A DNA stretch of 64,000 nucleotides, taken from positions 110,794,001 through 110,858,000 of the forward strand of contig CM126216.1 of assembly GCA_052327205.1 (NCBI GenBank), written 5' to 3'. Positions within the stretch are counted from its first letter, which is position 1, and every line of letters starts with the position of its first letter. Below are positions 52,920 to 53,192 of the stretch, one piece after another. Source of the stretch: Somniosus microcephalus. Its lineage: Eukaryota. The position numbers and the translations under genes were made by a program. The notes beneath the pieces are model-generated. The model saw only the letters and a list, made by a program, of their open reading frames with translations. It was not told the DNA's origin and did not search any database.

Positions 52920-53040
52920 TTGGCAAGAAAAAAGCAAGAAATTATCTTGAAATGATTGAGAAATGGTAAGATTTCCCCCTGCCATTTAAGGGTTTATTTT
53001 TGTATTGTAGACCCAATGTTGATGCAAAAAAAAATTAAGT
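52920..53040 (+). pseudogene. Degenerate tandem duplicate of the exon 5a acceptor and 5' exon sequence
   Basis: TATTTTTGTATTGTAGACCCA identical at 52995-53015 and 53135-53155; TGCCATTTAAGG and GAAATT.TCTTGAAAT also duplicated at a 140-141 bp offset. Confidence 0.9.
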
Positions 53041-53150
53041 TTGAAACTTTTTTTTAAAAATAACTTTGGCACGCGCCTGAAATTCTCTTGAAATCGATGC
53101 AATATTGGTCCGTTTCCCATTGCCATTTAAGGTATATTTTTGTATTGTAG

Positions 53151-53192
53151 ACCCATGCTGATGCAAAAGTCCAAGTAGTGGATAATCGAAAA
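53151..53192 (+). CDS. pax6: Pax6 alternative exon 5a
   Basis: 42 bp, TAG|..|GTAAGC; THADAKVQVVDNRK (human THADAKVQVLDNQN). Confidence 0.96.

Follow-up and report, generated by a model that had tools for sequence, protein, structure and literature searches.

In intron 5 of the Pax6 gene of Somniosus microcephalus, the acceptor (3′ splice site) of the alternative exon 5a was found twice. A spare copy of the acceptor unit lay upstream of the true one, and an antisense arm still further upstream was complementary to both copies. The arm and the spare copy were conserved in relatives, in one of which exon 5a was alternatively spliced. Based on predicted folds, we hypothesized that the spare acceptor is a kept partner for the antisense arm in a three-piece RNA-folding switch that tunes 5a inclusion, an explanation to which we give about an even chance. 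Coordinates refer to the window, the whole 64,000-nt stretch analysed, and all features lie on its + strand.

Exon 5 (52590–52720; 131 nt) encoded the PAI part of the paired domain, matched positions 2–44 of the Pfam PAX profile (E 6e-22) and was left by RNA joints at 52720. Exon 6 (53324–53539; 216 nt) matched PAX positions 45–116, and its best PDB match was PAX-6 in entry 6pax (E 1e-43). Exon 5a (53151–53192; 42 nt) had RNA joints on both sides and encoded 14 residues of the cartilaginous-fish type, identical to the C. milii (elephant shark) row in Fig. S2 of PMC4488758. The exon set, with 131-nt and 216-nt paired-domain exons around a 14-residue alternative exon, fits Pax6.1 with 5a. Since the 5a peptide is that of the elephant shark, the locus is probably Pax6.1 of a cartilaginous fish. 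According to a passage of PMC6947179, exon 5a alters the DNA targets of Pax6.

The spare copy (52938–53029) comprised a branch region (52980–52991), a pyrimidine tract, an AG at 53009–53010 and 19 nt of frameshifted exon with a TGA at 53020–53022. Aligned with 53079–53168, it was identical at 77 of 92 bases; the aligned part takes in approximately 70 nt of intronic sequence, the AG and 18 nt from the start of the exon. The local alignment score was 111, and none of 1000 dinucleotide shuffles scored above 55 (BLAST E 3e-18). The true acceptor unit (53079–53150), joined to exon 5 in RNA (52720^53151), was invariant in relatives at 53113–53150 and variable at 53078–53112. The spacer between the copies (53030–53077), an A-run and T-run, was also variable, with substitutions and indels in relatives E, F and G. 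The duplicated stretch gave one match in a search of the 6.4-Gb genome and was therefore single copy; with no tandem array at the site, a repeat or mobile element was ruled out.

An earlier note on this DNA had described the duplication, and its positions for the spare AG, the end of exon 5, exon 5a and the start of exon 6 all hold. Direct comparison bore out the two identical blocks that it had reported, of 21 nt (52995–53015 = 53135–53155) and 12 nt (52980–52991 = 53121–53132). Its duplication of ~140 bp was right as to the offset between the copies (139–141 nt), but only 92 nt could be aligned, ending 18 nt into the exon. In calling the sequence on either side diverged, it understated the likeness of the copies, as 52938–52953 and 53016–53029 were also nearly identical between them (15 of 16 and 13 of 14 bases, respectively).

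The 1-nt insertion in the exon-like part of the spare copy was likewise present as described. Splicing of exon 5 to AG 53010 would read T-Q-C-stop, in an exon of 182 nt up to the 5a donor. This stop precedes later junctions, with exons 6 and 7 downstream, and it falls at codon 4 with any donor, which ruled out a second in-frame 5a exon. Only the spare copy contained a donor-like GT at 52966 (52963–52971), 45 nt before the spare AG and 22–23 nt before the branch A. It matched six of nine consensus letters, equal to the real 5a donor, and was invariant in relatives. The GT and part of the branch region were held in a small predicted hairpin (52961–52986; pairing probability ~0.8) that was absent from the true copy and may help keep the spare copy silent. 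A cryptic exon ending at GT 52966 was rejected, as it had no RNA joint and its candidate frames contained stops. Additionally, the exon 5 frame ran on for 82 codons without a stop in the AT-rich intron (52721–52969), ending inside the spare copy; this was reached in 20 of 20,000 shuffles. The read-through frame was treated as chance and not as coding: judged from their positions, the indels listed for organisms E, F and G appear to shift it to stop-bearing frames. A protein search with its residues 85–134 gave no candidate among proteins of 73–235 residues.

No listed run was on record as RNA. Among the three runs guessed to be RNA (X15, X17 and X18), only X17 (organism G) gave contigs, and these excluded 53193–53323 (intron 5a). 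They joined exon 5 to exon 5a (depth 337), exon 5 to exon 6 (depth 707) and exon 5a to exon 6 (depth 344), exon 5 itself having a depth of 1037; contig depth is not a measure of level. These joints indicate that 5a is alternatively spliced in organism G. A further contig of depth 8 (52694–53178) ran from exon 5 through intron 5 into 5a, unbroken across 53011; for this contig, a retained intron, pre-mRNA and DNA are indistinguishable. Joints to AG 53010 or from GT 52966 were absent from the X17 contigs, which represent one run of unstated tissue with nonsense-mediated decay (NMD) unblocked. Of the junctions that the earlier note had proposed to count, the contigs thus contained 52720^53151 and 52720^53324 but not 52720^53011, a weak indication. 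Because contigs drop rare forms, the organism is a different one and NMD was unblocked, this absence weakens use of the spare site as a poison acceptor only slightly. The note had read the spare site as a poison acceptor or a decoy. A decoy tuning the Pax6/Pax6(5a) ratio fits our results, whereas poison use is so far unsupported, with no X17 joint.

A repeat search revealed inverted arms at 52857–52883 and 52898–52913 that were complementary to both copies. They lie within an antisense arm (52851–52913), the predicted docking site. The core of the arm (52857–52873) matched the pyrimidine tract and AG of each copy in antisense at 15 of 16 bases; 52876–52889 was partly complementary to the branch region, and 52888–52913 was complementary to the upstream block of the copies. 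Duplex energies of the arm with the two copies were −26.4 and −25.1 kcal/mol. Of 2000 shuffles, 13 and 21 attained the inverted alignment scores of the two copies; for the duplex energy, it was 1 of 500 with either copy. The window held 194 acceptor-like sites, of which one attained the alignment score of the arm and 46 its duplex energy (2 of the 45 AT-rich ones). The complementarity is unlikely to be due to chance, a conclusion of moderate strength: the figures are not overwhelming, and the arm was found after looking.

Folding predicted that the arm and the spare copy form one long hairpin (52851–53014; −39.8 kcal/mol for 52845–53016, z −2.81, 2 of 200 shuffles), with an A-rich, unpaired loop at 52914–52935 that tolerated change. 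The hairpin of the opposite strand was weaker (z −1.72), and the sense strand carried five G–U pairs. Seven of 142 GC-matched windows folded as well as the hairpin, and a longer stretch through exon 5a had a z of −1.47. An Rfam search gave no match at the gathering score and two chance-level hits (E about 3).

For conservation, the relatives were contigs of four DNA-type runs (organisms C, D, E and F), of organism E again and of the three RNA-guess runs, together 7 of the 23 listed runs. Each substituted site in C, E and F was counted once; coverage of D stops at 53056, and D contributed no further site. In the flanking intron, 32 of 258 sites were substituted, compared with none of 94 in the spare copy among the listed differences (p = 3e-5). 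Four T>A changes of organism F were unlisted and probably lie in the spacer at 53026–53061; were all four in the spare copy, p would be 0.016. Organism G agreed, with none in the spare copy among the 8 listed of 13 intron-contig differences, the other five probably lying near the ends of the pieces. The spare copy had a single indel, affecting one A of the run at its 3′ boundary. No substitutions in C, E and F fell in the true acceptor (38 sites) or in exon 5a (42 sites), whereas the upstream part of the true unit had 3 of 35 sites substituted. The comparison thus supports selection on the spare copy. Its neutral decay, which the earlier note had held would speak against its reading, was rejected in C, E and F. 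The three-piece element was conserved in organisms C, D (partial cover), E, F and G, which are kin and so do not represent independent lineages.

Conservation extended beyond the acceptor itself. In the arm (52848–52913), 1 of 66 sites was substituted in C, E and F (p = 0.004 vs flanking). The conserved block as a whole (52848–53025) had 2 of 182 variable sites vs 32 of 258 (p = 2e-6; 4e-4 if the four unlisted changes lie inside), and its ends coincided with those of the predicted hairpin. The non-acceptor part of the spare copy was invariant (0 of 35 sites) while its twin in the true unit varied at 4 of 35 (p = 0.057), which a pure splice-signal role does not predict. Bases 53016–53029 of the spare copy were also invariant, yet lie outside the arm pairing (p = 0.08 by chance).

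All changes in the hairpin, namely substitutions at 52880, 52895, 52917 and 52928 and the indels at 52927 (E, F and G), were at unpaired bases (p ~0.014; 0.04 without 52928), the last three positions belonging to the loop. No compensatory or one-sided pair changes were seen in the compared relatives; the stems were invariant and therefore say nothing for the structure. Arm-paired bases were identical between the copies at 38 of 42 positions vs 26 of 35 for the others, a marginal difference (p = 0.057). Pairing gains weight because the conserved block starts at the start of the arm and the changes are only in unpaired bases. The earlier note had missed this conserved inverted arm, the presence of which shifts the likely target of the decoy from the spliceosome to an RNA strand.

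When the arm core was forced onto either copy, the predicted ensemble energies differed by 0.1–1.6 kcal/mol from 5 to 37 °C. Both pairings use the same arm bases and would be mutually exclusive. Folding of the growing transcript placed the arm on the spare copy with a probability of ~0.9 before the true acceptor existed. Once it was present, the predicted equilibrium moved to the true acceptor at 37 °C and was split at 15 °C. With spans limited to 150–300 nt, the arm was predicted on the nearer, spare copy (0.6–0.9), and with the spare copy blocked, on the true acceptor (0.9). Across temperature and span settings, the probability of the arm on the true copy ranged from 0.85 to 0.0. With the arm blocked, or on the true copy, the spare acceptor was predicted to be exposed about half of the time. 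With the arm elsewhere, the true acceptor was predicted to form a local hairpin with the 5′ half of exon 5a (53136–53175; 0.8–0.9), and it was unpaired at 0.1–0.25 in all predicted states. Since a freed true acceptor pairs with exon 5a, its predicted accessibility changes little. The end of the duplication coincides exactly with the end of this local hairpin. Organism G had an 8-nt deletion in the true unit (53086–53093) and so lacks bases that the outer arm would bind; only the competition for the core is thus general.

In the proposed switch, the arm would bind one 3′ splice site at a time, the spare or the true one. During transcription, it would first close the long hairpin on the spare copy, which would hide the spare AG and keep the arm off the true acceptor, presumably favouring 5a inclusion. 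Refolding ahead of splicing commitment would place the arm over the pyrimidine tract and AG of the true acceptor, leading to skipping of 5a. With states this nearly equal (within ~2 kcal/mol), the Pax6/Pax6(5a) ratio could be sensitive to elongation speed, RNA-binding proteins and temperature. An older stem-loop may have been the source of the element: one of its arms would have been duplicated in tandem, and the exonic portion of the upstream copy would then have become non-functional.

The spare acceptor could instead act on the spliceosome, either by use of its AG (182-nt exon, stop at codon 4, decay) or by binding U2AF/U2 and so competing with the true acceptor or retaining intron 5. We consider this unlikely, although it is compatible with the switch and could coexist with it, the arm then only gating the spare AG. 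It would account for an acceptor that shares a 21-nt identical stretch with the true one, is invariant in relatives and is followed by an in-frame stop, and the predicted half-exposure of the spare acceptor with the arm on the true copy would give it an opportunity. The X17 intron-5 contig, at depth 8 beside 1037 for exon 5, is consistent with it, and decoy exons are described as seldom visible without NMD inhibition in passages of PMC6097662. However, X17 had no joint to 53011 and its intron contig bridges the site (weak evidence), and the invariance of 52848–52975, far upstream of the branch region, would be left unexplained. The donor-like GT also argues against use of the spare acceptor, as a donor-like sequence so close to the branch A would disfavour use by steric hindrance. 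Moreover, the introns of decoy exons are mostly >1 kb in the portion of PMC6097662 that treats them, whereas Pax6 intron 5 here is 430 nt.

Improbable, too, in our view is that duplicated and inverted sequence makes up a DNA-level enhancer or silencer, with complementarity arising as a by-product of the inverted duplication and the RNA fold being incidental. Several enhancers are placed in Pax6 introns in a passage of PMC6947179, but its table passage names none for intron 5. Near-total invariance over ~180 nt is typical of such elements, and the arm can be aligned to the acceptor unit as a partial, inverted copy, but its best match lies precisely at the pyrimidine tract and AG. A 10-mer shared by the two copies recurs at 53778–53787 in intron 6 (3 matches vs 0.25 expected). 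Both copies also contain a CArG-shaped 10-mer, whereas CArG-shaped sites as such were not enriched (6 vs 7.7 expected). A DNA element would also leave aside the restriction of variation to predicted loops and the better folding of the sense than of the antisense strand, with its five G–U pairs. The last explanation, which we regard as very unlikely, is a harmless silenced relic of an accidental duplication, with the arm silencing the spare acceptor only and the true acceptor unregulated by it. The decayed exon part of the spare copy would suit a relic, as would the predicted pairing of the arm with the nearer copy first (0.6–0.9 under span limits of 150–300 nt). In such a relic, deletion or loss of the AG would be tolerated, yet none of the 94 sites varies (p = 3e-5; worst case 0.016).

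A decoy 3′ acceptor has reportedly been the subject of a caspase-2 study. The folding switch that we favour most resembles the docking site/selector arrangement of Dscam exon 6 (PMC6071210), in which one element is complementary to two tandem duplicates and pairs with one at a time. The model of Ivanov and Pervouchine 2018 (PMC6071210), in the part describing it, likewise has such systems originate by duplication of one stem-loop arm with its exon. The Pax6 element shares with them complementarity to both copies, exclusive and similarly stable pairings (as predicted) and conservation. It differs in having one live exon, the cassette 5a, and not a mutually exclusive coding pair; the upstream copy stops at codon 4 and had no joint. 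Here the putative selectors are 3′ splice sites themselves, so that pairing would mask them instead of activating them; the main text of PMC6071210 does not use the word ‘acceptor’. With no two mutually exclusive coding exons and with acceptors as the competing elements, the Pax6 element is not a strict member of the class.

In vertebrates, the R1, R3 and R4 elements at human ATE1 exons 7a/7b (Kalinina et al., PMC7797038) are comparable: two conserved intronic elements of similar sequence compete for a third. Passages of that paper report that the 7a/7b ratio responds to polymerase speed and that the structure was proven by compensatory mutants. ATE1 has two coding exons, whereas in Pax6 the structure is predicted and one copy is a dead acceptor. 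Decoy or poison exons such as that in SF3B1 intron 4 (Parra et al. 2018, PMC6097662, in the relevant passages) share a conserved, stop-bearing cryptic intronic acceptor that is rare in normal RNA. Unlike them, the Pax6 spare acceptor is without its own downstream donor, lies in a 430-nt intron, duplicates the neighbouring true acceptor and has an antisense partner.

Exon 5a of jawed-vertebrate Pax6 (passages of PMC3554528 and PMC4488758) is the same exon in position and size, with the elephant shark peptide, and those passages describe no duplicated acceptor or intron-5 structure. Passages on human PAX6 minigenes (PMC11936725, PMC9863980) describe different cryptic sites, as well as an enhancer proposed to lie in intron 5 close to exon 5. 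In the full-text literature, subscription journals and supplements aside, no description of a duplicated 5a acceptor or a Pax6 intron-5 structure was found; the supplements of PMC3554528 may list conserved elements. Neither was an RNA-structure cis mechanism for 5a inclusion found in the full-text literature. The duplication of the 5a acceptor is real and conserved, and it is apparently undescribed.

Two further features of the window were observed. A block in intron 6 (53770–53830) contained the third copy of the shared 10-mer (53778–53787), a small inverted repeat and YY1-like words. Its AG at 53770–53771 lies at about the offset of the human intron 6 cryptic acceptor c.357+235 given in a passage of PMC9863980. 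Additionally, an AT-rich 172-nt stretch (36181–36352) had a predicted folding energy of −62.3 kcal/mol, much lower than those of the other 141 GC-matched windows, and is probably an inverted repeat.

The three-piece element spans ~350 nt with base-by-base predicted pairings, which makes the control of 5a directly testable in a minigene. Conserved, dead copies of acceptors next to cassette exons may be worth looking for in other genomes as well. A further question is whether intron 5 of human PAX6 has a simpler hairpin of arm plus acceptor; variants deep in that intron could be relevant to aniridia. More tentatively, and as a possibility only, shark Pax6 may set the ratio of its two DNA-binding forms with a kinetic switch whose dead duplicate 3′ splice site is preserved without a letter changed for the sole purpose of sequestering an antisense strand that would otherwise mask the real one, a ‘target mimic’ for splicing. 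Such a switch might be tuned by transcription speed or water temperature, and the spare site might serve as a poison acceptor when it flips. If true, the folding switch would be a natural case in which duplication of one arm gave rise to competing structures, the duplicate exon having died and its splice site having been kept as a competitor.
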